Shown: positions 1 to 54,010 of the stretch, piece by piece | Layout of the letters: every line of letters begins with the position of its first letter | Position numbering within the stretch: position 1 is the stretch's first letter | Assembly (NCBI GenBank): GCA_020148055.1 | Contig: JAHCRF010000001.1 | Coordinates: 71,257 to 135,256, forward strand | Reading direction: 5' to 3' | DNA: 64,000 nucleotides | Origin: Patescibacteria group bacterium | GTDB lineage: Bacteria > Patescibacteriota > Minisyncoccia > Minisyncoccales > JAHCRE01 | Translations under genes and position numbers: made by a program | The notes under the pieces: generated by a model | Databases searched by the model: none | Told to the model about the DNA's origin: nothing | What the model saw: only the letters and a program-made list of their open reading frames with translations

Positions 1-1356
1 AGCGCAAGCGATCGGCCAATCTAGGGTTGCAAATGGCCAGAGAGCTGAGGAGAACCAGGTATCCAGAACATCTTTCATTCCTTTAAGCGGTATTTTATGG
101 CCCCACCAGATTTGACGAGAAACACACCAATCTCTTATATTTTTTAACCAGTTAAAATAAATTTTCTCGAAGCTTTTTGGAACAAATTTAATTTTCCTAG
201 TTTTTACCGCCAAAATTGCCAGCCTGGCTAAATCATTCATTTTTAGAAACCACTGCCAGGAAGGGATTAGTTCAATTGTAGTTTTACATCGATAGCATTG
301 AGGAACTTGATGGACATAATCTTCAATTTTTTCTAAAAAACCTTGGTTTTTTAAATCTTTAACAATCTTTTTTCTAGCTTCCGAAGAAGCCAATCCTCGA
401 TAAGGCAGAGGGACTTCTTTGGTCATTTCCCCATTCTTATCGATAACCTGGATAATTTTTAGATTGTGCAAAAGTCCAATTTCATAATCTGTCATATCAT
501 GGGCTGGGGTTATCTTTACTGCTCCTGTCCCAAATTTTAGATCAACTAATTTATCTTTAATGATGGAGATTTCTCGGCCAACCAAAGGTAAGATAACTTT
601 TTTACCAATTAAATTTTTATATCGTTTATCTTTGGGATTTACTGCCACCGCCATATCTCCAAGCATTGTCTCCGGCCTGGTCGTAGCGACAGTAATAAAT
701 TTTTGACTTTTGACTTTCGACTTTTGATTTTTGATCGGATATTTGATATACCATAATTTTCCCTCCTTTTCTTTATATTCCAGTTCTAAATCTGACAGAC
801 TGGTCTGGCATCTCGGGCACCAATTTATTACTTTTTTCCCTCGATAAATCCAACCTTTTTTATAATAATGTAAGAATGCTTTTTCTATTGCTTGGCAATA
901 TTTCTCATCCATGGTAAATCGAGTTCTTGACCAATCGCAGGAAGCCCCTAATTTCTTCAACTGATCTAAAATGACATTTCCATATTTTTTCTTCCATTGC
1001 CAAACTCTTTTTAAAAATTTTTCTCGCCCTAAATCAAAACGAGTTTTTTGTTCTTTTTTTAACTCTTTTTCTACTCTCGCCTGGGTGGCAATACCAGCAT
1101 GATCGATCCCCGGGAGCCAGAGGGTTCTAAAACCTTGAAGACGTTTCCAACGGATTAAGATATCCTGGACAAGGGTATTTAGAGCGTGACCCATATGAAG
1201 AGAACCAGTAATATTTGGCGGAGGAATCAAAATTGTGTAAGATTTTTTTCTTTCCCCCGGTAGATTATCAGGATTAAAAAAACCAGATCTCAGCCAGAGA
1301 TTATAGATTTGACCCTCTACTTTTTTTGGAGCATAGACTTTTGCTAACTTTTTCAT
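1..1356 (-). CDS. valS: valyl-tRNA synthetase, N-terminal part (gene runs off the window start)
   Basis: Absent from the ORF track because there is no stop in the window. Reverse translation from ATG at 1356 gives MKKLAKVYAPKKVEGQIYNLWLRSGFFNP...PPPNITGSLHMGHALN (HIGH motif)...DVLDTWFSSALWPFATLDWP. Confidence 0.85.
   Translation of the reverse strand, partial: MKKLAKVYAPKKVEGQIYNLWLRSGFFNPDNLPGERKKSYTILIPPPNITGSLHMGHALNTLVQDILIRWKRLQGFRTLWLPGIDHAGIATQARVEKELKKEQKTRFDLGREKFLKRVWQWKKKYGNVILDQLKKLGASCDWSRTRFTMDEKYCQAIEKAFLHYYKKGWIYRGKKVINWCPRCQTSLSDLELEYKEKEGKLWYIKYPIKNQKSKVKSQKFITVATTRPETMLGDMAVAVNPKDKRYKNLIGKKVILPLVGREISIIKDKLVDLKFGTGAVKITPAHDMTDYEIGLLHNLKIIQVIDKNGEMTKEVPLPYRGLASSEARKKIVKDLKNQGFLEKIEDYVHQVPQCYRCKTTIELIPSWQWFLKMNDLARLAILAVKTRKIKFVPKSFEKIYFNWLKNIRDWCVSRQIWWGHKIPLKGMKDVLDTWFSSALWPFATLDWPIACA
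701..735. repeat. five-heptamer array (ttttgac ttttgac tttcgac ttttgat ttttgat) inside valS
   Basis: Direct reading. Translated on the minus strand as ...KNQKSKVKSQKF... just before the conserved ATTRPETMLGD. Confidence 0.85.
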
Positions 1357-1425: not shown

Positions 1426-2694
1426 TTAACTTATTCTTAAATTCGCATCAGCTTCAATATCAGGGGCCCGCCAAAGGCGGGAAGGTGGTCGGGACGCGAG
1501 GCCTTCTCGTGAAACGGGAGGCCCCGTCCTTGGGCGGGTCGGAGTCCAGGCCTTAGTTTCTTTTCTGAGATAACGAAAATAAGCAGCTACTGCCACCATA
1601 ACGGCATTATCAGTACATAAAATTTTTGGTGGAACCAAAAATTTAATCGTTAATCGCTGGTTTTTAATTGCTAATTGAAATTGTTTTCTTAATTCATTAT
1701 TGGCAGCCACCCCTCCACCAAGGATAATCATTCCGGCTTTATATTTTCTTGCTGCCTGGATGGTTTTATGAATTAAAACGTCAACTATTGCCTGTTGGAC
1801 CTCGGTAGACATTTCCTGGATAAATTTTTGCTTTTTGCGTTCTGTTTTCTGTTTTTTGATTTTATATAAGACCGCGGTTTTCAGACCAGAAAAACTGAAA
1901 TCAAAATTTTTTTGGTGAATCATTGGCCTCGGTAATTGAATATTGAATATTGAATATTGAATATTGGATTTTAATTGAGCGGCAAGCCGTTCAATGGCCG
2001 GTCCTCCTGGGTAATCCATTCCTAAAATTCTGGCTACTTTGTCAAAACATTCACCAGCAGCATCATCTCGAGTTTCACCAAGGATTTTGTATTCTCCGTA
2101 ATTTTTCATTAAAATTAACTGGGTATGACCGCCGCTTACCACTAAACAAACTGCCGGAAACGAAAACTTTAAACTTGAACCAACCAAGTTGGCGAAAATG
2201 TGAGCTTCGATATGGTTTACTGGGATTATTGGTAGTTCCCAAGAAAAAGCTAAAGCTTTGGCAAAATTTACCCCTACCCACAAGCAAGGTTCTAACCCTG
2301 GCCCCATAGTCACGGCAATTAGATCAATTTTTGGTTTCCTGTAATTTCTTAAGAATTCTTTTAACTCCTTTAAAAGATATTCTTCTCGTTTGAATATTTC
2401 TTCTAATACTGGATACTTGATACTTAATAGTTGATGCTTATCATTTTTTTTAAGCGATTTTGCTTTTTTTAACGCCCTTTTTAAAACAGGAATCAAATTT
2501 CGTTGGTGCTCTCTTTTAGCTAAGGTTGGATAGACTCCTCCATATTTTCTGTGAATTTTTATCTGAGAAGAGATAATATCAGACAGAATATTAATTTTCA
2601 TCCGTCTAAATCCGCGTTGTAATCTACCTTTATCTACTTCTACAATCGCTATACAGGTATCGTCACATGATGTTTCGACAGCAAGAATAATCAT
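1426..2694 (-). CDS. tsaD: tRNA N6-adenosine threonylcarbamoyltransferase TsaD (Kae1/Gcp family)
   Basis: MIILAVETSCDDT, NHIEAHI, VSGGHTQL, LCTDNAVM motifs. At 422 aa it is longer than usual because of repeat inserts at 1463-1547 and 1935-1969. Confidence 0.9.
   Translation of the reverse strand: MIILAVETSCDDTCIAIVEVDKGRLQRGFRRMKINILSDIISSQIKIHRKYGGVYPTLAKREHQRNLIPVLKRALKKAKSLKKNDKHQLLSIKYPVLEEIFKREEYLLKELKEFLRNYRKPKIDLIAVTMGPGLEPCLWVGVNFAKALAFSWELPIIPVNHIEAHIFANLVGSSLKFSFPAVCLVVSGGHTQLILMKNYGEYKILGETRDDAAGECFDKVARILGMDYPGGPAIERLAAQLKSNIQYSIFNIQLPRPMIHQKNFDFSFSGLKTAVLYKIKKQKTERKKQKFIQEMSTEVQQAIVDVLIHKTIQAARKYKAGMIILGGGVAANNELRKQFQLAIKNQRLTIKFLVPPKILCTDNAVMVAVAAYFRYLRKETKAWTPTRPRTGPPVSREGLASRPPSRLWRAPDIEADANLRIS
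1463..1547 (+). repeat. GC-rich hairpin element family A, copy 1 (in frame near the 3' end of tsaD, antisense to the host)
   Basis: 85 nt, about 87% identical by eye to 28032-28115. It is a GC island in AT-rich DNA and encodes ...TPTRPRTGPPVSREGLASRPPSRLWRAP... of TsaD. Confidence 0.9.
1935..1969. repeat. five-heptamer array (attgaat x4 + attggat) inside tsaD
   Basis: Direct reading. Encodes ...SNIQYSIFNIQ... upstream of the conserved FDFSFSGLKTAV. Confidence 0.85.
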
Positions 2695-2780
2695 AGAACT
2701 ATGAATTAAGAATAATGAATCATGAATAATAAAGAAAATAAGTTTCTCGCATAATTCATAATTCCTAATTCCTGATTCAT
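2693..2780. repeat. composite palindrome: inverted heptamer arrays (..tatgaat taagaat aatgaat catgaat / ataattc ataattc ctaattc ctgattc) around a short core
   Basis: Direct reading. Lies in the tsaD / tRNA-Glu spacer. Same 'gaat/attc' word family as 30476-30556, 37402-37510 and 48315-48401. Confidence 0.75.
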
Positions 2781-2833
2781 TTTAACGTTTGTCTTGCCTT
2801 TTTTCAATTTTTTAATTAAAATGATGATAGTTT

Positions 2834-4515: not shown

Positions 4516-6711
4516 TTATTCTAAATGGATTCTTTCTCGAAACTTCTCTACTCTTCCCCTTAATAAGGGATATTTTTTTAATTCAGGGTCCTCTTCTAAA
4601 ATTTCTTTAGCCGCCTTTCTAGTTTTCTCAACTAAGAATATATCTTTCAAAGCTGACATTGCTAAATCAGGAATTCCCCATTGTCTTTGACCAAAAAAAT
4701 CACCAGGGCCTCGAATTCCCAAATCTTTTTCAGCTAACTCAAAACCATTTTCAGAAGAAATCAAAGCTTTCAATCGTTGATGAGTTTTCTTAGCTGGAGA
4801 GTCAGTGAATAAAAAGCAAAAAGATTGATATTTTGATCTTCCTACTCTTCCCCGAAATTGATGGAGCTGCGCTAGCCCAAATCTTTCTGCTCCCTCAATC
4901 ATCATTACCGTGGCATTAGGAACATCGATCCCCACTTCAATTACTGAGGTTGAGACTAAAATGTCAATCTTTTTACCCCTTCCGGTTTGTGCAGAAAAAT
5001 GTTTCATTATCTTCTCTTTTTCTTTTGTAGTCATTTTCCCGTGTAACATTCCAACTTTTAAATCAGGGAAAACAATTTTTGATAGTTTTTGATATTCTTC
5101 TTTTACTGCCCTTACCTCAGCCCAGCTTGAAATTTCTTTTTCTATTTTTTCCTTATCACTAGGTTCAATCCTTGGGCAAATAACAAAAACCTGTCTTCCT
5201 TTTTTAACAACAGAGCGTATAAAATTATAAGCAGCCTTACGATTTCCCGGGGCAATCACCTTAGTGACGATTTTTTTCCTTCCCTTCGGCAATTCATTAA
5301 TTAAAGAAAGATCAAGATCACCGTAAATAGTAAGAGCCAAAGTCCTTGGAATTGGGGTAGCGGTCATTGATAATAAATGGGGAATTATTCTTGTTGCTTG
5401 CCCGCCTGCCGGCGAGGCTGGTTGCTGGTTGCTAGTTGCTAACTTTGCCCTTTGTTCCACTCCAAACCGATGCTGCTCATCCAGGATAACCAGAGCCAAT
5501 TTTCCAAAGCGCACTTTTTCTTGAATTAAGGCGTGAGTACCAATTAAAAGATCAATCTCTTCTTTTTTTAATTTTTCTAAAAGTTTTTCTCGAGAAATTT
5601 TGATAACTTTATTTTTTCTGTCGCCGAAAGCGACTCCCCGGAGGGTTGCTCTTTTAGAAAAAATTCTATTTTCTTTCCCGGTTAAAAGACCAATATTTAA
5701 ATTAAATTTTTTTAAAAGTTTTGAAATCTCCTGAAAATGTTGCTTAGCTAGGATTTCAGTTGGAGCCATAAAAGCCACTTGGAAACCTTGTTTTATTACA
5801 TTTAAAGCAGCTAATACAGCCACCACTGTTTTCCCTGAACCAACATCGCCTTCTAAAAGTCTGTTCATCGGTCTTGGTTTTTCGAGGTCTTTTAGAATCT
5901 GCCAGGCTGATTTTTTTTGGGCATTAGTTAATTTGAAAGGTAAGCTTTTAACAAAATTCTTAATTAACTGGGGATGAAAAGGGATTGGAATTGCTCTTTC
6001 TTTTGAGATTTTTAATTTCTCTCTTAAAACAAAAAGAGAAATAAAAAAAAGCTCCTCAAAAGAAAATCTTTTCTGAGCCTTTTTGGCTAAGGTTAAGGAA
6101 TCTGGGAAATGAATCTGCCAGATAGCTCTTTGGATTGGCAAAATTCGAGAATCTCTAATTACTTTTCCTGGTAGGGGTTCGCGAATTTTCTTTTTAAACT
6201 CAACCAAAAGGGGTCTTAGAATAAATCTTAACCATCTTGAAGACAATCCTTCAGTTTCGGGATAAACAGGGACAATTCTTCCGGTATGAATTAGACTTGT
6301 AGTTTGACTGATTTTCTCATGAGCTGGATTTGATAGATAAAGTCCTTTGTCTCCGAGAGTTATTTTTCCAGCTAAACATAAATTATCTCCTGATTTTAAA
6401 ACTTTTATTAAATAAGGTTGGTTAAACCAGATTACCTTTATTGCTCCTGATTTGTCTTTGACTATTGCCTGGGTTAAAATCATTCTTTTTTTCCAGGTTC
6501 TGATGTTTTCAATTTCTAGAATTTTTACCTTAATACAACAGGTTTCATTAAGTTTTACTTGAGATATCGGAATTATATTTGAAAAATCCTCATAGCGATG
6601 AGGAAAATGATAGAGAAGATCCCTGATTGTCTTTATTCCCAATTTCTTCAACCTCTTTTGGTAGCTGAGACCTACTCGAGGCAGACTCTCAATTGGAGTA
6701 GAAAGATTCAT
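4516..6711 (-). CDS. recG: ATP-dependent DNA helicase RecG
   Basis: Start moved to ATG 6711 (MNLSTPIESLPRVG), below the tRNA. Has DVGSGKT Walker A, LDEQHRFG, MTATPIPRTL and QFRGRVGRS. Contains inserts B and E. Confidence 0.9.
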   Translation of the reverse strand: MNLSTPIESLPRVGLSYQKRLKKLGIKTIRDLLYHFPHRYEDFSNIIPISQVKLNETCCIKVKILEIENIRTWKKRMILTQAIVKDKSGAIKVIWFNQPYLIKVLKSGDNLCLAGKITLGDKGLYLSNPAHEKISQTTSLIHTGRIVPVYPETEGLSSRWLRFILRPLLVEFKKKIREPLPGKVIRDSRILPIQRAIWQIHFPDSLTLAKKAQKRFSFEELFFISLFVLREKLKISKERAIPIPFHPQLIKNFVKSLPFKLTNAQKKSAWQILKDLEKPRPMNRLLEGDVGSGKTVVAVLAALNVIKQGFQVAFMAPTEILAKQHFQEISKLLKKFNLNIGLLTGKENRIFSKRATLRGVAFGDRKNKVIKISREKLLEKLKKEEIDLLIGTHALIQEKVRFGKLALVILDEQHRFGVEQRAKLATSNQQPASPAGGQATRIIPHLLSMTATPIPRTLALTIYGDLDLSLINELPKGRKKIVTKVIAPGNRKAAYNFIRSVVKKGRQVFVICPRIEPSDKEKIEKEISSWAEVRAVKEEYQKLSKIVFPDLKVGMLHGKMTTKEKEKIMKHFSAQTGRGKKIDILVSTSVIEVGIDVPNATVMMIEGAERFGLAQLHQFRGRVGRSKYQSFCFLFTDSPAKKTHQRLKALISSENGFELAEKDLGIRGPGDFFGQRQWGIPDLAMSALKDIFLVEKTRKAAKEILEEDPELKKYPLLRGRVEKFRERIHLE
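5383..5439 (-). repeat. element family B, copy 1 (gcaacNN heptamers + GC hairpin), in frame in recG
   Basis: Sense strand gcaactagcaaccagcaaccagcctcgccggcaggcgggcaagcaacaagaataatt is about 90% identical to 50750-50807. Encodes ATSNQQPASPAGGQATR. Confidence 0.9.
5620..5649 (+). repeat. element family E, copy 1 (gtcgccgaaagcgactcc hairpin), in frame in recG
   Basis: The gtcgc/gcgac stem with its flank resembles 48138-48156 (gtcgccgtaaggcgactcc). Encodes ..TLRGVAFGDRK... Confidence 0.7.
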
Positions 6712-6722
6712 AAGAATTGTGA

Positions 6723-6794
6723 TGCCCTCGAGAGGAGTCGAACCTCTATTTGAAGCTCCGCAAGCTCCTGTTTTATCCATTAAACTACGAGGGC
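6723..6794 (-). tRNA. tRNA-Arg (anticodon GCG)
   Basis: Hand fold: acceptor gccctcg/cgagggc, anticodon stem ggagc/gcttc, loop uuGCGga, T-loop ttcgact. No CCA encoded. Confidence 0.75.
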
Positions 6795-6870
6795 AAGCTT
6801 TTTAAATTTAACATAAATTTTTCTTTACTTCAAGTTGACTTAATTAATTTTATCCATTAAAATTAAAAGA

Positions 6871-7084: not shown

Positions 7085-7115
7085 ATTCCTAATTCTGGAT
7101 TCATAATTCTTAATT
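7081..7115. repeat. five-heptamer half-element (ttttatt cctaatt ctggatt cataatt cttaatt)
   Basis: Direct reading. Same unit family as the right arm at 37476-37510. Abuts the terminator hairpin. Confidence 0.7.
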
Positions 7116-7119
7116 TTAA

Positions 7120-10111: not shown

Positions 10112-10378
10112 ATGGCTGTTACTTTTATTGAATCAAGAAAAAGGCAGAAATATCTAATTTTTATCTTAGTTGTGGTGATTTTTGGAATTGCTTTCCTAAT
10201 CTGGAATTATTTTTCAGCAAAACCAAAGCTTCCCTTCTTTAAACCTCTGCCGCCACCTGAAATAAAAATAAATTTTGAAATATTAAAAAGTCCAACTTTG
10301 GACGAACTTCAGTTATTTGAAGAGATTTTACCCTTTGAAGAGGAAATTGGTCGAGAAAATCCCTTTACTCCCTATTAG
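10112..10378 (+). CDS. small single-TM protein of the pilus locus (function unknown)
   Basis: 88 aa ORF packed tightly between pilO and pilB. One hydrophobic helix (YLIFILVVVIFGIAFLIW). Confidence 0.5.
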   Translation: MAVTFIESRKRQKYLIFILVVVIFGIAFLIWNYFSAKPKLPFFKPLPPPEIKINFEILKSPTLDELQLFEEILPFEEEIGRENPFTPY

Positions 10379-10432
10379 GTCTTGAGAAAAATCTTCATCT
10401 AATATCTATTACCTAATATCTAAATTTAGATT

Positions 10433-14865: not shown

Positions 14866-14894
14866 AAAAATTGAGCCCTTCTAATGGAACTGAA

Positions 14895-14933
14895 TAAAAA
14901 ATCAAAAGGTCGAAAATCAAAAATTTCAAAAAT
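14895..14933. repeat. degenerate 'tcaaaag/tcgaaaa' word array in the pilin leader
   Basis: aatcaaaaggtcgaaaatcaaaaatttcaaaaa resembles the reverse complement of the valS array (701-735). Confidence 0.6.
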
Positions 14934-14951
14934 TAATGACTAATAATTAAA

Positions 14952-16161: not shown

Positions 16162-16962
16162 ATGGAGTTGGTTTCCTTTTTCTCTCTTTTTATTTTCCTT
16201 TTTGGATTAGCAGTAGGTAGTTTTTTAAATTCAATAATTCACCGCTTACATACCGGCGAAAGTTTTCTATTTACTCATTCCTATTGTCCTCATTGTAAGC
16301 ACAAATTAAGCTGGCAAGATTTAATTCCTATTTTGAGTTTTCTAATTTTAAAAGGAAAATGCCGATATTGTAAAAAAAAGGTGTCCTTGCAATATCCCTT
16401 GGTTGAGTCAGCAACTGGAATTTTATTTATTTTAACTACCCATTACACACTACTTACTATAAGCTACGAAAGTTTACTGTTTACTGTTTACTGTTTACTG
16501 TTAAGTTGTTTCTTAATAATAATTTTCGTTTACGATTTAAAACACTATATTATTCCGGATAAAATAATTTATCCTGCAATAGGCATTGCCTTTATCTATA
16601 ATATTCTTTATTCATACTTCATAATTCATAATTCCTATTTCCTTGTAAATAGTTTATTAGCAGCCTTTACTGGAGGCCTCTCTTTTCTTTTTATTTTTCT
16701 CCTTTCGGGTGGCAAATGGATGGGTTTTGGTGATGTTAAGTTAGTTTTCTTTATGGGTCTTTTTTTGAGTTTTCCAGATATTTTGGTTGCTCTGTTTTTA
16801 GCCTTTTTAGTTGGTGCTATAATAGGGATAGGGTTGATTTCGGCTGGTAAAAAAACTCTTAAGAGTGAAGTTCCTTTTGGCCCTTTTCTGGTGACAGGAG
16901 CCTTTATCGCTTTCTGTTTCGGAAATCAAATAGTAAATTGGTATTTAAAAATTTTAAGATGA
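16162..16962 (+). CDS. pilD: prepilin peptidase PilD (A24 family) with N-terminal Cys4 domain
   Basis: CPHC...CRYC, multiple TMs and the GFGDVKL catalytic Asp context. TATAAT lies 6 nt upstream of the ATG. Carries two heptamer arrays. Confidence 0.85.
   Translation: MELVSFFSLFIFLFGLAVGSFLNSIIHRLHTGESFLFTHSYCPHCKHKLSWQDLIPILSFLILKGKCRYCKKKVSLQYPLVESATGILFILTTHYTLLTISYESLLFTVYCLLLSCFLIIIFVYDLKHYIIPDKIIYPAIGIAFIYNILYSYFIIHNSYFLVNSLLAAFTGGLSFLFIFLLSGGKWMGFGDVKLVFFMGLFLSFPDILVALFLAFLVGAIIGIGLISAGKKTLKSEVPFGPFLVTGAFIAFCFGNQIVNWYLKILR
16472..16506. repeat. five-heptamer array (gtttact x4 + gttaagt) inside pilD
   Basis: Direct reading. Encodes ..LLFTVYCLLLSC... Confidence 0.8.
16607..16641. repeat. 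five-heptamer array (tttattc atacttc ataattc ataattc ctatttc) inside pilD
   Basis: Contains the 18-mer attcatacttcataattc, which is identical to part of the rpoB-rpoC spacer arm (30522-30556). Confidence 0.8.
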
Positions 16963-17516: not shown

Positions 17517-17568
17517 AAAAAGCTAACATCTAATTGTTAATAGATCAATTAACAATCAATAATCAACA

Positions 17569-18090
17569 ATGAATAATAAGAGTTTTACTTTATTGGAGGC
17601 AATCATAGCAATTTTTATAATTACAGTTGGAGTTGTTGGAGTCTTAGGTTTGGTTTCCCAGACAATTGGTTCTGTTATTGTTTCATCACAAAAACTAATT
17701 GCTGCCTATTTAGCTCAGGAAGGAATTGAAATTGTTAGAAATATCAGAGATACAAATTGGTTGGAGGGAGCGCCGAGTTGGGATGAAGGTTTAGGAGAAG
17801 ATGATTGGGAAGGAGATTATACAATGACTCAGAATTTGAATTTCTGTCTTTTTGCTTGTGGATATGATGATCTCAGTTTTCTTAAAATTGATGCTAATGG
17901 CTTTTATAGTTATTCTGCCGGAAATGATACAAAATTTAAAAGGAAAATTACCATCGCTGATAAAGAAGATTTGAGTGACCCCCCCGACGGTGTCTATGAT
18001 AAAATGACCGTTACAGTTGAAGTTTTTTGGCGAGAAAAAGGGAAAACCTACAACGTCTCTGCCCAGGAAAATTTATATAATTGGCGATAA
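17569..18090 (+). CDS. minor (pseudo)pilin
   Basis: MNNKSFTLLEAIIAIFIITVG prepilin-type N-terminus. Confidence 0.75.
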   Translation: MNNKSFTLLEAIIAIFIITVGVVGVLGLVSQTIGSVIVSSQKLIAAYLAQEGIEIVRNIRDTNWLEGAPSWDEGLGEDDWEGDYTMTQNLNFCLFACGYDDLSFLKIDANGFYSYSAGNDTKFKRKITIADKEDLSDPPDGVYDKMTVTVEVFWREKGKTYNVSAQENLYNWR

Positions 18091-27177: not shown

Positions 27178-30100
27178 ATGAAGTTTAAAGATTTTTCAAA
27201 ATCAAAAATTTCCCTACCCTTACCTTATTTACTCTCGATTCAAAGAGAAAGCTGGCAGAGATTTTGGGAAAGAGATTTAAAAGAACTCTTTTCAGAAATA
27301 TCGCCCATTCAAGATTATACCGGAAAGGAGTTAGAACTCTGGTTTTTAGACTATAAATTGGATGAGCCCAAATATAAAACTACCTTGGAAGCTAAGGAGA
27401 ATAATGATTCTTATGAAGCAGCCTTGCGGGCTAGAGTAAGATTAGTCAATCTCAAAACAAAAGAAATTAAAGAACAAGAAGTCTTTTTAACCGATTTCCC
27501 CTTAATGACCAAGAGAGGAACTTTTATTGTTAACGGGATAGAAAGAGTAGTTATTTCTCAGCTTATTCGTTCCCCCGGCGCCTTTTTTACTTCTCAGATA
27601 ATTAGAGGTGAAACTCATTTTGGAGCAAAAATTATTCCTAATCGGGGAGCTTGGCTTGAATTTGGAACTGAAGCCTCCGGTTTTATTGGAGTTAAGATTG
27701 ACCGAAAGAGAAAAGTAGCAGCTACTACTTTATTGAGAGCTTTCGGAATTGATCAAGATGAAAAAATTCTAGAGATCTTCCAAGATATTGATAACAATCC
27801 AGAAATTAACTATATTTCAGAGACAATAAAAAGAGACCCTACTAAAAATCAAGCCGAAGCCTTAATTGAAGTCTATCAGCATCTAAGACCAGGAGATTTA
27901 ACAACCGCTGAGACAGCTAGAGAGTTGATTGAAAACATGTTTTTTAATTTTGAAAGATATGATTTGTCAAAAGTAGGGAGATGGCGAATGTGGCAGAGAC
28001 TACCGGAATTGAAAAAATCCAAAATCCAAAAGGGGCCCACGAAAGTGGGAGGGCGGTCGGGACGCGAGGCCTTCCCGCGGAACGGGAGGCCCCGTCCTTG
28101 GGTGGGTTGGAGTCCAAAATCCAAAACTAAAAAGCCAAAGCTAGAAGAAGGAATCACCAGGTCAGATAGGGTTTTGCATCCCGAAGATATTGTGGCTGTT
28201 TTGAGAGAGATTATTAGATTAAATAATGACCCCGGGGGAAAACCCGATCAGATTGATCATTTGGGCAATCGGCGAGTAAGAACTTTAAATGAACTTTTAC
28301 AAAACCGATTAAGGGTAGGTTTAATGAGAATGGCCAGGATTATCAAAGACCGAATGGCTACTTTAGATATTTCCATCTTAACCCCGGTTCAATTGATTAA
28401 TTCCCGACCATTTATAGCGATAGTTAGGGAATTCTTTACCTCTTCTCAGCTTGCTCAGTTTATGGACAATGAGAATCCTCTTGCTGAATTAGAGCATAAA
28501 AGAAGACTATCAGCTACCGGACCAGGTGGTTTAACTCGAGAAAGAGCTGGGTTTGAGGTTAGAGATGTTCAACCATCCCATTATGGAAGGATTTGCCCTA
28601 TCCAAACTCCTGAAGGACCAAATGTTGGGTTAATTAATCATTTAGCTGGTTTTGCCCGAGTTAATCCTTATGGTTTTATTGAAACTCCTTATTTCAAGGT
28701 GAAAAATGGAAGGGTTACTTCAGAAATTTGTTATCTTAATGCCTATGAAGAAGAAAAGTATAATATTGCCCATGGAGGAGTACCAATCGATGAGAAAGGC
28801 AAAATTACCTCCAAAAAGGTTGAAGCTAGAGTAAAGGGTGAACCAGGAATAGTTGGTAGAGAAAAAGTTGATTTTTTCGACATCTCTCCTGCCCAATCAA
28901 TTTCTATCGCTACTTCTTGCATTCCTTTTTTACAAAATGATGATGCCAACCGAGCCTTAATGGGATCAAATATGCAAAGACAAGCTGTTCCTCTTCTCAG
29001 ACCAGGGGTTCCCCTAGTTATTACTGGAGCAGAAGAGAAGGTAGCTAGAGATTCTGGCCAGGAGATAATTGCCGAGGAAGAAGGGGTTGTTACCGAAGTC
29101 GATGCTAATCATATTAAAATTAGGGGTAAAAAGGGAGAAAAGAAATATCCTCTGCAAACTTTTATTCAGACCAATCAATTCACTTGTTTTCATCAAAGCC
29201 CCTTAGTTAAAAAAGGGAAGGTTGTTAAAAAAGGAGACATTTTAACTGATGGTGGAGGAATTTCTCAAGAACATTTAGCTTTAGGCCGAAATATTTTGGT
29301 TGCTTTTATGTCCTGGCGTGGAGGAACTTTTGAAGATGCAATTTTGATTTCTGAAAGATTGGTTAGAGATGATGCTTATACTTCAATTCATATTGAGGAT
29401 TTTAGTTGTGATGTTCGAGAAACCAAATTGGGACCGGAGATTACAACCTGTGATATTCCTAACGTTTCAGAAGAAAAATTGAGGAATTTAGATGAAGAAG
29501 GTTTAGTCAGAATTGGGGCTGAAGTTGGCCCAAATGATATCTTGGTTGGGAAGATTTCTCCAAAAGGAGAAGTTGATTTAACTGCTGAGGAAAGATTATT
29601 GAGAGCTATTTTTGGAGAGAAAGCTAGAGAAGTTAAAGATACCTCTTTATTAATGGAGCATGGTAAACAGGGGAGGGTAATTAATGTGAAGATTTTTTCT
29701 AGAGAATCGGGTCATAGACTTGACCCCGGAGTGATAAAAAGAATTGATGTTAAAGTAGCGGAGATTAGAAAAACTCAAGCCGGTGATAAATTAGCTGGTC
29801 GCCATGGGAATAAGGGAGTGATTTCTAAGGTTTTACCAATTGAAGATATGCCATTTTTAGAAGATGGAACTCCAGTCGATATTATTTTAAATCCTCTAAG
29901 CATTGCCTCGCGAATGAATATTGGTCAAGTTCTGGAAGCTCATTTAGGAAAAGCGGCCAAAAAATTGGGCTACATTGCTATTTCTCCGGCCTTAGCTGGA
30001 GTGACTGAGGAAGAGATTAAAGAAGAGCTTAGGAAGGCTGGATTACCAGAAGATGGAAAAGTCGCTCTTTATGATGGCCGAACCGGCCTACCTTTTTCCA

Positions 30101-30480
30101 AAAAAATTACTGTTGGCTATGTTTATATGATGAAATTAATTCATATGGTTACCGATAAAATCCACGCCAGATCAATTGGACCTTATTCTCTAATTACTCA
30201 ACAGCCCTTAGGAGGAAAGGCCCAATTTGGAGGTCAAAGATTCGGAGAAATGGAAGTTTGGGCTTTAGAAGGACATGGAGCAGCCCATAGTTTACAGGAA
30301 ATGTTAACTATTAAATCCGATGATGTCCAAGGTCGGGCAGCTGCTTATCAGGCCATCTTAAAAGGAGAGCCAATCAGAAATCCTAATGTTCCCGCGTCTT
30401 TAAATTTACTAATCAATGAATTAAAGGCTCTTGGGCTAAATGTTGAAATAAAAGAAAACCCCAAAGAACAAGAATCCTGA
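27178..30480 (+). CDS. rpoB: DNA-directed RNA polymerase beta subunit
   Basis: 1100 aa with canonical beta motifs (GRHGNKGV, FGEMEVWALE). Carries a 123-nt repeat insert at 28014-28136. Confidence 0.97.
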   Translation: MKFKDFSKSKISLPLPYLLSIQRESWQRFWERDLKELFSEISPIQDYTGKELELWFLDYKLDEPKYKTTLEAKENNDSYEAALRARVRLVNLKTKEIKEQEVFLTDFPLMTKRGTFIVNGIERVVISQLIRSPGAFFTSQIIRGETHFGAKIIPNRGAWLEFGTEASGFIGVKIDRKRKVAATTLLRAFGIDQDEKILEIFQDIDNNPEINYISETIKRDPTKNQAEALIEVYQHLRPGDLTTAETARELIENMFFNFERYDLSKVGRWRMWQRLPELKKSKIQKGPTKVGGRSGREAFPRNGRPRPWVGWSPKSKTKKPKLEEGITRSDRVLHPEDIVAVLREIIRLNNDPGGKPDQIDHLGNRRVRTLNELLQNRLRVGLMRMARIIKDRMATLDISILTPVQLINSRPFIAIVREFFTSSQLAQFMDNENPLAELEHKRRLSATGPGGLTRERAGFEVRDVQPSHYGRICPIQTPEGPNVGLINHLAGFARVNPYGFIETPYFKVKNGRVTSEICYLNAYEEEKYNIAHGGVPIDEKGKITSKKVEARVKGEPGIVGREKVDFFDISPAQSISIATSCIPFLQNDDANRALMGSNMQRQAVPLLRPGVPLVITGAEEKVARDSGQEIIAEEEGVVTEVDANHIKIRGKKGEKKYPLQTFIQTNQFTCFHQSPLVKKGKVVKKGDILTDGGGISQEHLALGRNILVAFMSWRGGTFEDAILISERLVRDDAYTSIHIEDFSCDVRETKLGPEITTCDIPNVSEEKLRNLDEEGLVRIGAEVGPNDILVGKISPKGEVDLTAEERLLRAIFGEKAREVKDTSLLMEHGKQGRVINVKIFSRESGHRLDPGVIKRIDVKVAEIRKTQAGDKLAGRHGNKGVISKVLPIEDMPFLEDGTPVDIILNPLSIASRMNIGQVLEAHLGKAAKKLGYIAISPALAGVTEEEIKEELRKAGLPEDGKVALYDGRTGLPFSKKITVGYVYMMKLIHMVTDKIHARSIGPYSLITQQPLGGKAQFGGQRFGEMEVWALEGHGAAHSLQEMLTIKSDDVQGRAAAYQAILKGEPIRNPNVPASLNLLINELKALGLNVEIKENPKEQES
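28014..28136 (+). repeat. nested insert in rpoB: 'aaaatcc' heptamer array interrupted by element A
   Basis: aaaatcc aaaatcc aaaa[84-nt A]aaaatcc aaaacta aaaagcc. The total of 123 nt equals 41 codons. Confidence 0.8.
28032..28115 (+). repeat. GC-rich hairpin element family A, copy 2 (in frame in rpoB, sense)
   Basis: 84 nt, about 87% identical to 1463-1547. Encodes ..GPTKVGGRSGREAFPRNGRPRPWVGWSP... Confidence 0.9.
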
Positions 30481-30556
30481 ATTATGAATTAGGAATCAAG
30501 AATAAAAAATAAGAAATAAAAATTCATAATTCATACTTCATAATTCGTAATTCTGA
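30476..30556. repeat. composite palindrome in the rpoB-rpoC spacer: 5x7 'NNNgaat' array, 11-nt core, 5x7 'attcNNN' array
   Basis: cctgaat tatgaat taggaat caagaat aaaaaat / attcata attcata cttcata attcgta attctga. The left arm overlaps the rpoB stop codon. Confidence 0.8.
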
Positions 30557-30560
30557 TATT

Positions 30561-33500
30561 ATGAGAGTAGCTGATCTTAAATCAATAAAAATTCGCTTAG
30601 CCTCACCAGAAGAAATTTTATCTTGGTCTCATGGCGAGATTACTAAACCTGAAACCATCAATTATCGAACTCAAAGAGCAGAAAAGGACGGTCTTTTTTG
30701 TGAAAGAATTTTCGGGCCAACTAAAGATTATCAATGCTATTGCGGTAAATATAAAAGAATTCGTTATAAAGGGATAACTTGCGATCGCTGTGGGGTAGAA
30801 GTGACAAAATCTTCGGTCAGACGAGAGAGGATGGGTCATATCAAATTGGCCTCACCGGTTTCTCATATTTGGTTCTTAAGAGGAGTACCGTCGCGAATGG
30901 GAATAATCTTAAATGTTTCTTTACCCAAATTGGAAAGGGTAATTTATTTTGCTGCTTACATTATCACAGAAGTTATAGAGGAGGCTAAGAAAAGAGTTTT
31001 AAAAGAGATTGAGAAAGAATACAGGTCAAAGGTAAAAACTCAAAAAGCTTCCCCAGCCCCACCCGCCACCCATCAAAGGAAAAAAACATCTAAGGCAAAA
31101 ACAAAAAGTAAAAATAAAATAAAACCCCAAGACCTGAAAGTAGCCAGAGATAAAGCTAAAGAGGAAGTGTTAGCTTTGAAACCTTTGAAAATTCTTTCTG
31201 AGGTGGAATATCACAATCTTTCTTTTAAATATGGAGAGGTTTTTACAGCGGGAACAGGAGCAGAAACTCTAAGGAAAATTTTTGAGAAGATAGATTTTAA
31301 AAAAGAAATTACCAAATTAAAAAAAGAAATTGAAAAAGCCTCACCGGTGAGTCGAAGAAAAATTTTAAGGAGATTGAAACTCTTCCAGTCGATGTCTAAC
31401 GCAAAACTGAGACCAGAGTGGATGTTTCTGAATGTTTTGCCGATTTTACCCCCAGATTTAAGACCAATGGTTCAGTTAGATGGTGGTCGTTATGCTTCCT
31501 CTGATTTAAATGATCTTTATAGAAGAGTAATTAATCGGAACAACCGTTTGAAATATCTTTTAGAAATTGCAGCTCCTGAAGTTATTGTTAGAAATGAGAA
31601 AAGAATGTTGCAGGAAGCAGTTGATGCTCTGATCGATAATGGAATGAGAAAGGGAGTAATTACCAGGGCGACCACTGGAGGAAGAAGGCTTTTGAAATCT
31701 TTAGCTGATATGTTGAAAGGAAAACAAGGGAGATTCAGGCAAAATCTTTTAGGTAAAAGAGTTGATTATTCGGGCAGATCGGTGATTGTCGTTGGACCAA
31801 AATTAAGACTTCATCAGTGTGGTCTTCCTAAAAAGATGGCCTTGGAATTATTTAAACCTTTTGTTATTAAAAGAATTTTAGATAAAGAATTGGCTTACAA
31901 TGTAAGGGCAGCTTCGAGGTTGATTGAGCAGGAAACCGAGGAAGTTTGGGCAATCTTAGAAGAAGTGGTTAAAGATAAATTGGTTTTATTAAATCGGGCT
32001 CCAACCTTACATCGATTAGGAATCCAGGCTTTCCAACTAATATTAATTGAGGGAGAAGCAATTCAAGTCCATCCTTTAGTTTGTAAAGCCTTTAATGCCG
32101 ATTTTGATGGGGATCAAATGGCTATCCATTTACCTTTATCAACTGAGGCCCAAAAAGAGGCTAAAGAAATAATGTTATCTACCTTAAATCTTTTGAAACC
32201 AGCCACTGGTATTCCAATTGTAACTCCTACTCAAGATATTATCCTTGGCTGCTATTTTTTAACCAAAATTAAAGAGAAAGCTAAAGGGGAAGGGAAGATC
32301 TTTGGAAATTTCCAAGAGACCGTTTTAGCTTATGAGTTTGGAGAGGTAGACTTAAAAGCCGGAATCAAGGTTAAAATAAAGAATTCGGAATTTTTAGAGA
32401 CTTCGGTTGGGCGAATTATTTTTAATGAGACTTTACCCGCAGGCTTCCGGTTTATTAATGAAGTGATAAATTCAAAGAAATTAGAAAAAGTGATAAGTGA
32501 AATTATTGAAAATTACGGAATAGAAAGATCGGTTGCTACCCTGGATAAAATTAAAGATTTGGGATTTGAATATGCCACTATTTCAGGTTTATCCTGGGGA
32601 ATGGATGATTTAGATATTCCTAAAGAAAAAGAAGAATTAATTAAAGGGGCAGAAACAGAAATAGAGATGATCGAAGAACACTTCAAAAAAGGGTTACTGA
32701 CTGAGGAAGAAAAATATCTAAAGACAATTGAAATTTGGCAAAAAATAAAATCAAAAATTGAAAAAATTGTTCCGAAGACATTACCATCTGAGAGTTCAGC
32801 ATTTTCAATTGTTGATTCCGGAGCGAAAGGCTCCTGGATCCAACCTGTGCAGATGTGTGGAATGAAGGGTTTAGTGATTAATCCAATGGGACAGATTATT
32901 GAACTTCCAATCAAAAGTTCTTATAAAGAAGGATTTAATGTTTTGGAATATTTCATTTCTACCCATGGAGCAAGAAAAGGAACAGTTGATACGGCTCTAC
33001 GTACCTCTACTGCTGGCTACTTAACCAGAAGACTTATTGATGTCGCCCATGAGGCAGTAATAACTGAGGAAGATTGTCATGACGAGAAAGGGATTGAAAT
33101 ATCCAGAGGGGATGCTGAAGAAATTGGCCAGAATTTTATCTTCAAGATTTTAGGGAGAGTAGTTATAGAAGATGTCAGAAATCCCGCCAGAGGCGAGGCT
33201 CGCCAAGGGCGGCAAAAAGCAAAAAGCAAAATTATCAAAAAAGGAGAAATAATTGATTGGAAAGCGGCTGAGGAAATAATTAAAGCTGGGGTTGAAAAAG
33301 TTCGAGTTCGTTCTCCCTTAACTTGTAAGTCAACCAGAGGAATTTGCCAGAAATGCTATGGCTGGGATTTAGGCTCAAATCAATTAGTTAAATTAGGGGA
33401 AGCGATGGGGATTGTTGCTGCCCAGGCGATTGGCGAGCCGGGAACTCAATTAACGATGAGAACTTTTCATACCGGTGGCGTGGCTGGAGGAGAAGATATA

Positions 33501-37401: not shown

Positions 37402-37510
37402 GAATCACGAATCACGAATTATGAATTATGAATAGAATAAAAACGGTAATTCAAAAACTGCCCCCAAGGGCAGTTTTTTATTCTTGATTCCTAATTCCTT
37501 ATTCTATTTA
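37402..37510. repeat. composite palindrome: 5x7 array (gaatcac gaatcac gaattat gaattat gaataga), terminator core, inverted 5x7 array (ttttatt cttgatt cctaatt ccttatt ctattta)
   Basis: Direct reading. Lies between convergent recA and rpsR. The right arm overlaps the rpsR stop. Confidence 0.8.
37453..37479. terminator. bidirectional intrinsic terminator core (aaaaa-ctgccc-ccaa-gggcag-tttttt)
   Basis: 6-bp GC stem, 4-nt loop, flanking A-run and T-run. Confidence 0.8.
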
Positions 37511-37701: not shown

Positions 37702-37704
37702 AAT

Positions 37705-37795
37705 CAGTATTTAGTATTTCGTATTAAGTATAAAGTATAAGAAAGAAAACCTCTGAGCTCGAACCTCAGATACTTTATACAGAATACTTGATACT

Positions 37796-43916: not shown

Positions 43917-43921
43917 GTTTT

Positions 43922-44010
43922 AAGTATTAGGTATTAAGTATAAAGTATCTAGTATTAAAAAAATAAAATTTAAAAATACTAAGCACTTAATACTAGATGC
44001 GAGATGCGTA
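43922..44010. repeat. composite palindrome, 'agtatt' family: 5x7 array, 19-nt A-rich core, inverted 5x7 array
   Basis: aagtatt aggtatt aagtata aagtatc tagtatt / atactaa gcactta atactag atgcgag atgcgta. Lies between the rnj start and tRNA-Leu. Confidence 0.8.
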
Positions 44011-47327: not shown

Positions 47328-48803
47328 TTAATTCCTAGTCAACATTTTTTCCTTTCTCAATTTCCTATGATAAGAAATCGCAAATCGGTGAGCCTCGTCA
47401 CGTAATTGCAAAATTAAATTGAAAATTTCTCTTGGTAAGTTTTTCAGAAAAATCGGCCTTTTTCGATTCTCAATGTATAGTTTATTTCCCTTTTTAGCTA
47501 AACTTGCAACTATTATCTTTTTTTTGCTTTTTGCTTTTTGCTTTTTGATTTTGAGGGCAGCGTTAAGTTGCGTGATTCCCCCATCAATTAAGACCAAATC
47601 TGGCCAGCCCCATTCAGGATGTTGCAATCTCCGAGATAAAATTTCTTTTATCATTGCTATATCACTCGGTCTGCCAGAAATCTTGATTTTAAATTTTCGA
47701 TAAAATTCTTTAGCTGCCTGGCCTCTAATAAATGTCACCATGGCACCTACAGCTAATTTTCCAGAAATATTTGAAATATCATAGGCTTCAATTCTTTTTA
47801 TCTTCTTTTCGGTTTTTAAAATTTTCTTTAAAATTTTTTGAATTTGGGGCCAGTCCAAAATTTTTGCCTGCTTGCCAGGATCTGTGACTTCAAGCGCTGG
47901 CAGGCGGGCATTAAGGATTACCTTTTCTAAGGAAAATATTTTATCCCTAATTTTGGCTGCTTTTTCAAAATTTTGCAAATCAGCTGCTCTTTTCATTTCT
48001 TTTTTTAAATTTCTTAAGACCTGATTTCTTTTTCCTTGGAGAATTTTGAGAAGATTTCTGGCGTTCCTTTGACACTCCTTTTTAATTTTTTCTCTTAGCC
48101 CAGGAATTTGAGAACTAAGTTTTGCTCCCCCCCTAGGGTCGCCGTAAGGCGACTCCTTCAGGGATTTTAATAGGCAAGGAGCTGGACAACGACCCAATTG
48201 ATACCAGAGACAAGGTCTTTTTGGCAAGATTTTGCAGGTTCTGTAAGGGAGAGCTTTCCTTAAAATTTTTAGAGTTTGTTTTAAAGCTTTACCATCAACA
48301 AACGGACCAATAAACTGGAATTTAGAATTATGAATTATGAATGATGAATTATAAGGTTTTTTCTTTTTTGTTCTTGATTCTTGATTCCTGACTCTTGATT
48401 CCCAAAATGGTTGGTGGGTCAAGAATACTCTTGGAAAGCCCTCTTTAGCTATTCCAACATAAAAATAATTTTTGTCATCTCGCCAAACAACATTATATTT
48501 TGGTAGAAATTTTTTTATTAAATTTGCCTCCAGAATTAAAGCCTCGATTTCTGAATCAGCTTTGATAAAACCTATTTTTTTGGTTTTATCTAGAAAAATA
48601 CTTTCTTTGAAACCGGGTTGTTGAAAATGATTTTTAACTCGCTTTCGAATATTTGAAGCTTTGCCAATGTATAAAATTTTCCTTTCTTTGAAGCAATAAA
48701 CCCCCGGCTTTTTAGGAAGTTTTTTAACCCCCTCCTTTTTTAAAAATTTAAATTTTTTCACGTTCGGTAATCCGATTTTAACTTGAAATTGATAATTTTT
48801 CAA
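47328..48803 (-). CDS. uvrC: excinuclease ABC subunit C
   Basis: GIY-YIG N-terminus (PGVYCF..ILYIGKA..), UvrBC domain, RNase H-like endonuclease domain and a C-terminal HhH region. Interrupted in frame by four repeat inserts. Confidence 0.9.
   Translation of the reverse strand: MKNYQFQVKIGLPNVKKFKFLKKEGVKKLPKKPGVYCFKERKILYIGKASNIRKRVKNHFQQPGFKESIFLDKTKKIGFIKADSEIEALILEANLIKKFLPKYNVVWRDDKNYFYVGIAKEGFPRVFLTHQPFWESRVRNQESRTKKKKPYNSSFIIHNSKFQFIGPFVDGKALKQTLKILRKALPYRTCKILPKRPCLWYQLGRCPAPCLLKSLKESPYGDPRGGAKLSSQIPGLREKIKKECQRNARNLLKILQGKRNQVLRNLKKEMKRAADLQNFEKAAKIRDKIFSLEKVILNARLPALEVTDPGKQAKILDWPQIQKILKKILKTEKKIKRIEAYDISNISGKLAVGAMVTFIRGQAAKEFYRKFKIKISGRPSDIAMIKEILSRRLQHPEWGWPDLVLIDGGITQLNAALKIKKQKAKSKKKIIVASLAKKGNKLYIENRKRPIFLKNLPREIFNLILQLRDEAHRFAISYHRKLRKEKMLTRN
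47531..47565. repeat. five-heptamer array (tttttgc x3, tttttga, ttttgag) inside uvrC
   Basis: Direct reading. Encodes ..KIKKQKAKSKKKI... Reverse complement of the rpoC array family. Confidence 0.85.
47866..47909 (+). repeat. 13-bp GC hairpin insert in uvrC (gcctgcttgccag-N18-ctggcaggcgggc)
   Basis: Direct reading. Two of the 13 pairs are G:T, which is only tolerated if the plus strand folds. Shares caggcgggca with family B. Confidence 0.65.
48125..48163 (+). repeat. element family E, copy 2 (gtcgcc-gtaa-ggcgac hairpin at 48138-48153), in frame in uvrC
   Basis: Perfect 6-bp stem with a GNRA-type loop. Encodes ..KESPYGDPRGGAK... Related to 5620-5649. Confidence 0.7.
48315..48401. repeat. complete 87-nt composite palindrome ('gaat/attc' family) inserted in frame in uvrC
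   Basis: ctggaat ttagaat tatgaat tatgaat gatgaat, then a 17-nt core, then ttttgtt cttgatt cttgatt cctgact cttgatt. 35+17+35 = 87 nt = 29 codons (..ESRVRNQESRTKKKKPYNSSFIIHNSKFQ..). Confidence 0.85.

Positions 48804-52210: not shown

Positions 52211-54010
<1,800 letters not shown>

Follow-up and report, generated by a model that had tools for sequence, protein, structure and literature searches.

The stretch of DNA described here (the window) comprises 64,000 nucleotides (nt) of the metagenome-assembled genome of a Patescibacteria group bacterium (GenBank assembly GCA_020148055.1, contig JAHCRF010000001.1, positions 71,257 to 135,256 of the forward strand), with a GC content of approximately 35%, and carries, among others, the genes valS, tsaD, recG, pilD, rpoB, rpoC, recA, rpsR, uvrC, and uvrA. 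Arrays of degenerate 7-nt units in tandem lie within several of these open reading frames (ORFs) and in the spacers between genes (Table 1); tsaD contains three such arrays, and uvrC has arrays at two sites, at one of which two arms make up an inverted composite. A preliminary description of the window, made from the sequence alone, listed seven sites in ORFs. Six of them are placed accurately, the letters of the valS array being exactly as written there, and the uvrC array lies approximately 10 nt to the left, at 47521-47552; the rpoC array reaches only 2.9 units. The tally of seven is an undercount, as the window holds approximately 28 arrays, which are found also in recG, in rpoB, at a second site in uvrA, and in spacers.

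Period-7 excess and array length

Tandem repeats were listed with Tandem Repeats Finder and with lag-match scans, for which 20 dinucleotide shuffles served as controls. The strict lag scan of the window yields 10 period-7 arrays, as against none in the 20 shuffles, and across periods 2 to 15 no array is found outside period 7 except three at period 14, which is the double period. A looser criterion, under which 21 or more of 28 lag matches suffice, yields 17 strong arrays at period 7 as against 0 to 1 at periods 3 to 12, and Tandem Repeats Finder reports approximately 35 rows of period 7. Of these 17 strong arrays, ten are in ORFs and seven in intergenic DNA, which makes up only 5% of the window.

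Array lengths were taken from a clade sample of 179 kb, in which the window's genome and its nearest relatives were pooled. The nearest TsaD and UvrC sequences are 68% and 83% (77% by local BLASTP alignment) identical to those of the window, respectively, and two relatives have the same gene order, namely GCA_974434335.1 (loci L082 and L090) and GCA_020148025.1 (loci L084 and L089); the L082/L084 and L089/L090 loci likewise have an excess at period 7 only. In the clade sample, 34 arrays measure 29 to 36 nt, 32 nt being the most frequent length (n = 12), 16 measure 21 to 28 nt, and 5 measure 37 to 46 nt; the 35 ORF arrays and the 8 spacer arrays have this mode in common. Arrays of at least 24 nt number one at period 6 and three at period 8, with a mean of 0.3 per replicate in the shuffles; no array of 26 nt or longer occurs in the shuffles, as against more than 40 observed. 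The copy number of about five that had been noticed at the listed sites is therefore a real mode, the modal array of 32 nt corresponding to 4.6 units. A length of 32 nt equals four units plus 4 nt, i.e., five 4-nt cores separated by four spacers of 3 nt, and the further length peaks of larger samples, at approximately 26, 40, and 46 nt, match the same n x 7 + 4 series. Such phasing would be expected if the arrays were seeded at microhomologies of approximately 4 nt. The cap at 32 nt may come from the shifted self-homology of an array of this length, which at 25 nt approaches the minimal length of homology for RecA recombination.

Table 1. Heptanucleotide arrays and composites of the window (strand is that of the gene; z, z-score of the predicted fold; pLDDT, predicted local distance difference test)
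Feature	Position	Strand	Units	Product or context
valS array	701..735	-	Window letters TTTTGAC TTTTGAC TTTCGAC TTTTGAT TTTTGAT; sense strand ATCAAAA ATCAAAA GTCGAAA GTCAAAA GTCAAAA	IKNQKSKVKSQK, loop preceding VATTRPET
tsaD array 3	1825..1863	-	Degenerate CAAAAAN	KIKKQKTERKKQK; helix-turn junction, pLDDT ~70
tsaD array 2	1935..1969	-	ATTCAAT x4.6, GAATATT family	SNIQYSIFNIQ; coil, pLDDT ~61
tsaD array 1	2406..2439	-	CAAGTAT type	HQLLSIKYPVL; hypervariable loop
Composite E1	2695..2793		GAATNNN x5, center, NNNATTC x4	Adjoins tsaD start codon; z -5.2 on minus strand
recG composite	5393..5441	-	AGCAACN x3.6 with nested 21-nt GC-rich palindrome	LATSNQQPASPAGGQAT
Single array	7085..7119		ATTCNNN x5	Beyond hairpin 3' of tRNA-Ser
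Intergenic array	10397..10432		ATCTAAT x4	Short palindrome at its end
Intergenic array	14893..14934		Degenerate NTCAAAA	Compared with valS in the preliminary description
pilD array 1	16472..16502	+	GTTTACT x4.4	Hydrophobic peptide
pilD array 2	16603..16643	+	ATTCATA family	YSYFIIHNSYF; variant units take out in-frame TAA
Array	17543..17580		CAATCAA type	Extends into start codon of gene at 17569
rpoB array	28014..28137	+	AAAATCC on both sides of an 85-nt element	85-nt GC-rich element at 28032-28116
Composite E2	30464..30560		GAATNNN x5-7, then ATTCNNN x5	Fills rpoB-rpoC spacer
rpoC short array	33212..33231	+	GCAAAAA x2.9	QKAKSK; weak, decays beyond
Composite E3	37402..37504		GAAT arm, bidirectional terminator-like hairpin, ATTC arm	Between convergent recA and rpsR; z ~-5.2
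Composite E4	37702..37795		AGTATNN x5, hairpin, ATACTNN x3-4	Adjoins rpsR start codon
Composite E5	43917..44010		AGTATNN and ATACTNN arms	tRNA-Leu to RNase J start codon
uvrC array	47521..47552	-	GCAAAAA x4.6	KIKKQKAKSKK; other heptamer arrays in same loop of orthologs
uvrC composite E6	48311..48405	-	GAATCAA x5, A-rich center, ATTCATA x5	Whole translated: ESRVRNQESRTKKKKPYNSSFIIHNSKFQ
uvrA array	50270..50301	+	CTAAATC x4.6	Odd unit CTATAAC at would-be in-frame TAA
uvrA composite	50749..50796	+	AGCAACN array with the GC-rich palindrome of recG	Same reading frame as in recG

Reading frame and location in protein loops

The ORFs stay open through every ORF array of the window. As 7 and 3 have no common factor, approximately 21 nt of a perfect array samples all the trinucleotides of its unit. 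A stop trinucleotide occurs in the consensus unit of 11 of the 35 ORF arrays of the clade sample when the sense strand is read and of 24 when the antisense strand is read, the genomic baseline for heptamers being 43%; in the 20 arrays whose consensus is free of stops on one strand only, that strand is the sense strand 18 times and the antisense strand twice. Where the consensus does contain TAA, odd units are placed exactly at the would-be in-frame stop, i.e., CTATAAC for CTAAATC in uvrA, CTTCATA and ATTCCTA for ATTCATA in pilD, and ATTCATC and ATTCTAA in uvrC. The units are thus degenerate because stops are avoided at in-frame positions, and this avoidance, as read from the sequence, argues strongly for the translation of the arrays that the preliminary description had assumed. 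The sense strands of the ORF arrays are 51% A and 9% G, which makes the encoded peptides rich in Lys, Asn, Gln, and Ser; the exception to this hydrophilic character is the membrane protein PilD, in which the array peptides are hydrophobic. The arrays do not behave as the phase-variable simple sequence repeats (SSRs) of contingency loci, whose changes in length turn genes on or off, typically genes for surface or virulence functions, since they are in valS, tsaD, rpoC, recG, and uvrC and are always in frame.

The arrays of TsaD and UvrC coincide with the most variable columns of the alignments, and those of ValS, RecG, and UvrA lie in loops that vary in comparison with the two syntenic relatives; outside these loops, the three proteins are highly similar between the window and both relatives (alignments inspected by eye). 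The AlphaFold model of TsaD has a mean pLDDT of 79; it places two arrays in coil segments and the third (residues 278 to 290) at the helix-turn junction between helices 269-281 and 285-317, and the array means of pLDDT range from 61 to 75. Both the alignments and the coil or lower-pLDDT segments of the model agree with the placement in variable loops that the preliminary description had proposed. Runs of residue identity at a lag of seven are found in 76 of the 120 nearest homologs of TsaD and likewise in 76 of the 120 of UvrC; these runs number 131 and 93, respectively, as against 3 to 46 at the other lags between 3 and 11, and the phenomenon is thus clade-wide.

That the arrays are assembly errors, or that they are removed or bypassed at the level of the RNA or the ribosome (as with 'byp' or T4 gene 60), is strongly disfavored. 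Array lengths of 32 to 35 nt are not divisible by 3, as such a reading would allow, and the short Logan contig L083, compared with L082, terminates precisely with the final base of the heptamer array in ValS, so that arrays can break short-read assemblies. However, the arrays recur in independent assemblies and sources, the frames are open through all of them with stops avoided specifically on the sense strand, and the loop lengths are compatible with those of orthologs. The TsaD of the window has a 100% match in an NCBI protein labeled 'Patescibacteria', its DNA is also present in European Nucleotide Archive assembly ERZ23498930, and the independent assemblies are identical through the arrays, which speaks against an assembly artifact.

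Change in place at orthologous loops

The same loop may carry arrays of different units in close relatives. In the ValS loop before VATTRPET, five units of ATCAAAA/GTCAAAA in the window correspond to 4.3 units of GCGACAA in L082 and L084, and in the TsaD loop before LPRPMI, 4.6 units of ATTCAAT correspond to five of AAAACTA in the same two loci. The UvrC loop between THQP and VGPF is occupied by the GAAT composite in the window, by 4.7 units of GAGACAA in L088, and by five units of CTAAACC in L089 and L090, and the loop is short and free of arrays in more distant UvrC orthologs. The RecG loop has AGCAACC in the window, AGCAACA without the GC-rich insert in L084, and no array in L082.

Three comparisons show smaller changes. 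In the TsaD loop after HIEAHIFAN, the window has TCAAGTTTAAAGTTT, with two copies, and L082 has five copies of CAAAGTT-type units (CAAAGTT TAAAGTT AAAAGTT TAAAGTT), which adds exactly 21 nt, or seven residues. One ValS site has five units of AAATTCC in L082 and five of AAATTTC in L084, with the same substitution in every unit. A perfect array of CAAACTA (4.4 units) in the window is matched, at the same place in the relatives, by a degenerate array of related units. These comparisons fit contraction and re-expansion, which would amount to in situ slippage with homogenization, and a second three-unit step is suggested by the UvrC sequences P0148 and P0137. They also dispose of the puzzle that 35 nt is not divisible by 3, since the array is not the inserted unit and the net changes of the loops are multiples of 3 (+21 nt at one site).

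Unit families and probable copying between loci

Grouping of the units gives, among others, the families GAATNNN, AGTATNN, CAAAAAN, CTAAAYC, and AGCAACN, and the sequence families expected from the listed sites therefore exist. The pattern GAAT-N3-GAAT-N3-GAAT with at most one mismatch has 36 matches in approximately 13 arrays, some of them non-coding, as against 1.55 expected from dinucleotide-preserving shuffles. The suggestion that the arrays of valS and of the spacer at 14895 are copies of a module is not upheld, as their alignment shows membership in the NTCAAAA family only and no shared ordered copy.

Longer modules are common to other loci. A 48-nt module consisting of an AGCAACN array and the 21-nt GC-rich palindrome is in recG and uvrA, in the same frame and with 92% identity; uvrC and uvrA of L090 both contain a CTAAACC array with an identical 42-nt palindrome in an identical position; and composites E2 and E3 have a common 24-mer with the variant units in the same order. 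The uvrC composite is 85.1% identical between the window and L087, the top value among 123 sliding windows, whereas the gene overall is 68.9% identical; L088, which is closer (87.7% identical over the gene), has a different array at this site. Whole modules thus appear to be copied between loci besides slippage. The preliminary description had favored copies of common modules over slippage: the recurrence of modules holds for recG and uvrA, for E2 and E3, and for the window and L087, but the two are not alternatives, as the TsaD loop with two or five copies and the unit-wide substitution between L082 and L084 point directly to slippage in situ with homogenization.

Independent slippage at every locus, the likeness of the families being due to AT-rich composition and selection on the peptides, is in our view quite improbable. 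The A-rich sense strands and the avoidance of stops do restrict the usable units, and an excess of heptamer SSRs is general among bacteria; however, the excess of GAAT-N3 over the shuffles includes non-coding copies, and variants in the same order and composites of 48 to 87 nt are common to different loci and genomes. The idea of DNA uptake sequences, based on an over-represented motif, inverted pairs at terminators, and the loops, was set aside because the units are too many.

Nested and dispersed GC-rich elements

Dispersed similarity beyond the simple repeat, as in miniature inverted-repeat transposable elements (MITEs) or Rickettsia palindromic elements (RPEs), is found in the composites only, whereas uvrC composite E6 and the GC-rich elements of tsaD, rpoB, recG, and uvrA are read through in frame as parts of their ORFs. 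The tsaD gene (1464-1548, on the minus strand) and rpoB each contain an 85-nt GC-rich element; the two copies are 85% identical, both are translated in frame, and their orientations with respect to the genes are opposite. The TsaD copy forms a C-terminal insert of 27 residues that is absent from all 24 aligned orthologs and has a pLDDT below 50. The rpoB element has TCCAAAA on both flanks, but TCCAAAA is also a unit of the array.

The GC-rich palindromes measure 21 nt (5393-5416 and 50770-50790 of the window) and 42 nt (uvrC of L090 at approximately 10270-10320, and uvrA), and each is nested at the same position of same-family arrays in two genes of one genome. Further GC-rich peptide inserts in relatives are LQPTRRPPVKRA in ValS of L082 and PARHRP...ALAGG in UvrC. 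A 65-nt segment without heptamers is 100% identical between rpoC (31037-31101) and uvrA (49629-49693), and right after it the uvrA ORF, the only broken one, breaks into ORFs 48826-49698 and 49958-51799. The 259-nt gap between the two contains sequence that looks coding, and UvrA of the relatives is a single protein of 986 to 1,013 residues; the break could be a recent insertion making a pseudogene, or a frameshift.

Spacer arrays and arrays outside the clade

The spacer arrays are mostly inverted pairs around a center, forming composites of 75 to 103 nt that fold into long hairpins with 7-nt-periodic bulges (z-scores of -2.3 to -5.3); the centers differ from one another. Composite E1 is missing upstream of tsaD in L082 and L084, and E5 is missing in the syntenic spacer of the relatives. 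The ychF-rpsF spacer of L090 contains an array pair of another family, where the spacer of the window is 19 nt long. A search of Rfam at gathering thresholds returned tRNAs only and no known RNA family on the arrays.

Five arrays end 0 to 7 nt 5' of a start codon. A role as replacements for the Shine-Dalgarno (SD) sequence was dropped, as the whole genome is poor in SD sequences (any SD-like motif in only 8 of the 52 genes of the window) and the comparison is uninformative. Several genes have TATAAT-like boxes approximately 7 to 20 nt upstream of the start codon, and this position suggests leaderless or very short-leader mRNAs. Some predicted ORFs overlap tRNAs: at 2794-2906, the N terminus of the 2794 ORF covers tRNA-Glu, and at 6721-6795, that of the recG ORF covers tRNA-Arg; the true starts of these ORFs probably lie further downstream. 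Upstream of the Cpn60 gene, at 52211-52285, there is a 75-nt imperfect palindrome with irregularly spaced CGAAT/ATTCG motifs that is not of strict period 7 and does not resemble the consensus of the CIRCE element.

Outside the clade, a control set of 68 non-CPR (candidate phyla radiation) loci fetched via TsaD, mostly from Planctomycetes (964 kb), contains 37 period-7 arrays as against at most 10 at any other period, with an array density approximately one-seventh of that of the window. Several planctomycete metagenome-assembled genomes have unit families of their own in spacers (L032, L035, L068, L076, L058, L063, and L081), namely GAATACA (written CTGTATT), GACTTCT, and GAGGACA, one of which contains GAAT. 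The GAAT-family 18-mer ATTCATAATTCATAATTC matched at least 120 stretches in a metagenome collection and at least 120 in a viral collection, and 80 loci from each were analyzed. Their host contigs range from 26 to 64% GC, and 154 of the 165 arrays are non-coding, with a mode of 31 to 34 nt; the GAAT family is not private to the window's genome. Viral contigs L257 (IMG/VR UViG 3300035392_000147), L266, and L239 are rich in ATTCATA, ACTCATA, and TTCAATC arrays; the 12.7 kb of L257 contain 18 arrays, and lengths of approximately 150 nt are reached by some arrays of viral contigs. Among arm pairs at most 120 nt apart, the GAAT arm comes first and the ATTC arm second in 10 of 10, and the reverse order does not occur; hairpin stability does not explain this rule. 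Since the same length mode is found in non-coding arrays, in unrelated bacteria, and in viral contigs, selection on the frame is not the cause of the size of about five units.

These observations bear on a discrete family of mobile elements, MITE- or RPE-like, that a dedicated or phage-borne enzyme would insert ready-made, with slippage as secondary decay. Such a family is possible, although we consider it unlikely. It would account for the dominance of a few unit families, the narrow size and fixed arm order of the composites, their lineage-specific occurrence at syntenic spacers (E1, E5, and the ychF-rpsF pair), the phylogenetic incongruence of the uvrC composite of the window and L087, the occurrence of the same composites in two genes of one genome, and the spread of the GAATTAT family over genomes of very different GC content and over array-rich viral contigs. 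On the other hand, the ORF arrays are mostly single arms with mutually unrelated units, orthologous sites show graded change in situ, the centers of the composites differ, and neither conserved termini beyond the repeated core nor a target-site duplication nor a linked transposase was seen.

A functional platform on which one subunit or domain would bind per heptad, such as a ribbon-helix-helix (RHH) protein of the omega/ParB type or, at the RNA level, an S1 or cold-shock domain, with function fixing the size of about five units and the ORF copies as by-products, is an improbable explanation. The omega protein of pSM19035 needs at least four repeats for full activity (PMC9499535), the GAATCAC units of E3 contain AATCAC, the sharp size mode is common to several phyla, the arm order is directional, and the arrays just before start codons recall the TAACTGA repeats of Beggiatoaceae (PMC4679880). 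No single sequence-specific binder fits units that differ between arrays, however, and the intergenic arrays are not kept at the syntenic positions of relatives; the lack of SD sequences beside arrays carries no information in so SD-poor a genome, no match was found in Rfam, and no cognate protein turned up, although no search was aimed at RHH genes or promoters.

Origin of the arrays

The reading that we prefer, with a probability of about 0.55, is that the arrays are a lineage-specific, ORF-invading variant of the known bacterial heptanucleotide repeats, shaped by slippage, copying between loci, and selection. In a lineage of Patescibacteria (Paceibacteria type), heptamer repeats would have spread into short spacers and into those surface loops of housekeeping proteins that tolerate insertions. 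Units of 7 nt would be gained, lost, and homogenized by strand misalignment seeded at microhomologies of approximately 4 nt, an enzymology that we infer. In ORFs, only net changes divisible by 3 survive because a single register shift is a frameshift; the smallest whole-unit step would therefore be three units (21 nt, or seven codons), and a loop would toggle between approximately two and five copies. Ready-made arrays and inverted-pair composites of the few unit families named above would in addition be copied between loci, presumably by homology-driven ectopic conversion or in a MITE-like manner. Selection would act as a filter that keeps ORF copies only in loops and favors stop-free units on the sense strand, with variant units taking out the stops at in-frame positions of the others; the ORF copies would encode low-complexity hydrophilic peptides with a period of seven residues, and paired spacer arrays would form long periodic hairpins around terminator-like stems.

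Several observations weigh against this reading. When net differences in loop length are counted over the alignments of TsaD and UvrC, seven residues are not in excess, so that the three-unit step is demonstrated at one TsaD site only, and independent assemblies of the same populations showed no copy-number polymorphism. Non-coding arrays of unrelated bacteria and viral contigs have the same 32-nt mode, and the small number of unit families and the strict GAAT-then-ATTC order would not be predicted by pure slippage. No enzyme and no target-site duplication was identified for the copying, E1, E5, and E6 being without a discernible duplication.

The occurrence of the GAATTAT family across 26 to 64% GC and viral contigs, the universal size quantum, and the GAAT-then-ATTC order leave room for a more tentative and less probable proposal, in which an unrecognized mechanism common to phyla and phages would write or copy heptad arrays of approximately 32 nt, e.g., a mobile heptad-armed element or a platform for a protein that binds with one subunit per heptad. 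If this were true, the CPR lineage would represent the most extreme outcome, with routine in-frame colonization of the loops of essential proteins and new peptide segments. The repeat-encoded inserts in approximately two-thirds of the closest homologs of TsaD and UvrC affect annotation, profile searches, structure prediction, and assembly, and the arrays offer a visible route from a repeat of non-coding type to protein sequence in reduced genomes. Unrelated bacteria and phages share the 32-nt mode, the phasing by n x 7 + 4, and the GAAT/ATTC direction, and these features provide testable handles on the long-standing question of why heptanucleotides dominate the long SSRs of bacteria.

Comparison with known repeat systems

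In the open-access literature, we found no paper that connects heptanucleotide or heptamer repeats with the CPR or with Patescibacteria and none with GAATTAT-type arrays. The design itself, of which the preliminary description knew no described example, has precedents: according to the summaries in PMC4679880 and PMC4692102, heptanucleotide SSRs are the most abundant class of long SSRs in most genomes, and slippage has been proposed for them (Mrázek 2007), and TAACTGA repeats occur by start codons and in some ORFs. The window arrays show two features of LSSR7, the 7-nt class of long SSRs (LSSR), i.e., head-to-tail iteration of 7 nt and a length and frequency above those expected from composition, and, as far as these summaries go, they resemble the LSSR in having period 7 as the sole strongly over-represented period, a proposed origin by slippage, a scattered phylogeny, and lineage-specific units. 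Mrázek, Guo & Shah (2007) found that, among LSSR5-11, coding regions favor unit lengths divisible by three (via PMC4679880 and PMC4692102), and neither the sharp 32-nt mode nor the unit families of the window are part of their description as summarized there. Unlike the LSSR, 35 of the 43 arrays of the clade sample are inside the ORFs of housekeeping genes.

The heptamer families STRR1-3 of cyanobacteria are said to have the units CCCCAGT, TTGGTCA, and CAACAGT, and small dispersed repeats are reportedly nested in the heptamer arrays of Nostoc. The arrays of the window are similar in being tandem heptamer families with GC-rich palindromes inside them (in recG, uvrA, rpoB, and uvrC and uvrA of L090), a resemblance that hints at a general link between both types of repeat. 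The units and the phylum are different, none of these three STRR units being among those of the window or the clade sample, and here translation within essential genes extends to the arrays as well as to the elements nested in them. RPEs are said to be elements of 100 to 150 nt with unique sequence that lie in frame in ORFs. The uvrC composite and the GC-rich elements are like them in being palindromic modules translated in frame in tolerant surface regions, whereas tandem heptamers characterize the present arrays, most of which are single non-palindromic arms.

The TAACTGA repeats of marine Beggiatoaceae, Cyanobacteria, and Bacteroidetes are present in two to six copies (MacGregor 2015, PMC4679880), mostly just 5' of start codons that lack an SD sequence, and their horizontal spread is suspected; copies in ORFs are occasional, only in the stop-free orientation, and mostly at protein ends (PMC4679880). 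The arrays of the window share with them the small number of heptamer copies and the preference of the ORF copies for the stop-free orientation; five arrays of the window also end just before a start codon, in a genome that is poor in SD sequences throughout. In contrast to the single unit TAACTGA, which is absent from the arrays listed for the window and the clade sample, they comprise many families located in internal loops of conserved enzymes, and their position is kept across the clade.

Rehm et al. (2015, PMC4692102) describe GGGAATC and GGGGAYT repeats in the spacers of Xanthomonas and Nostoc, which differ extensively in length and sequence even among close relatives and are sometimes arranged as inverted pairs. 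The spacer arrays described here are likewise sometimes inverted pairs, vary between relatives, and have GAAT in the unit; the former are G-rich, quadruplex-forming, and non-coding, whereas the latter are AT-rich and have no G-runs. The RHH ParB protein omega of pSM19035 binds runs of 7 to 10 contiguous WATCACW heptads, which may be direct or inverted, with one dimer per heptad (PMC9499535). Its operators resemble the present arrays in consisting of contiguous 7-bp repeats, both direct and inverted, and the modal array of 4.6 units reaches the minimum of four, whereas the operators have a set consensus, a promoter location, and an adjacent cognate gene, and only the GAATCAC units of E3 resemble that consensus.

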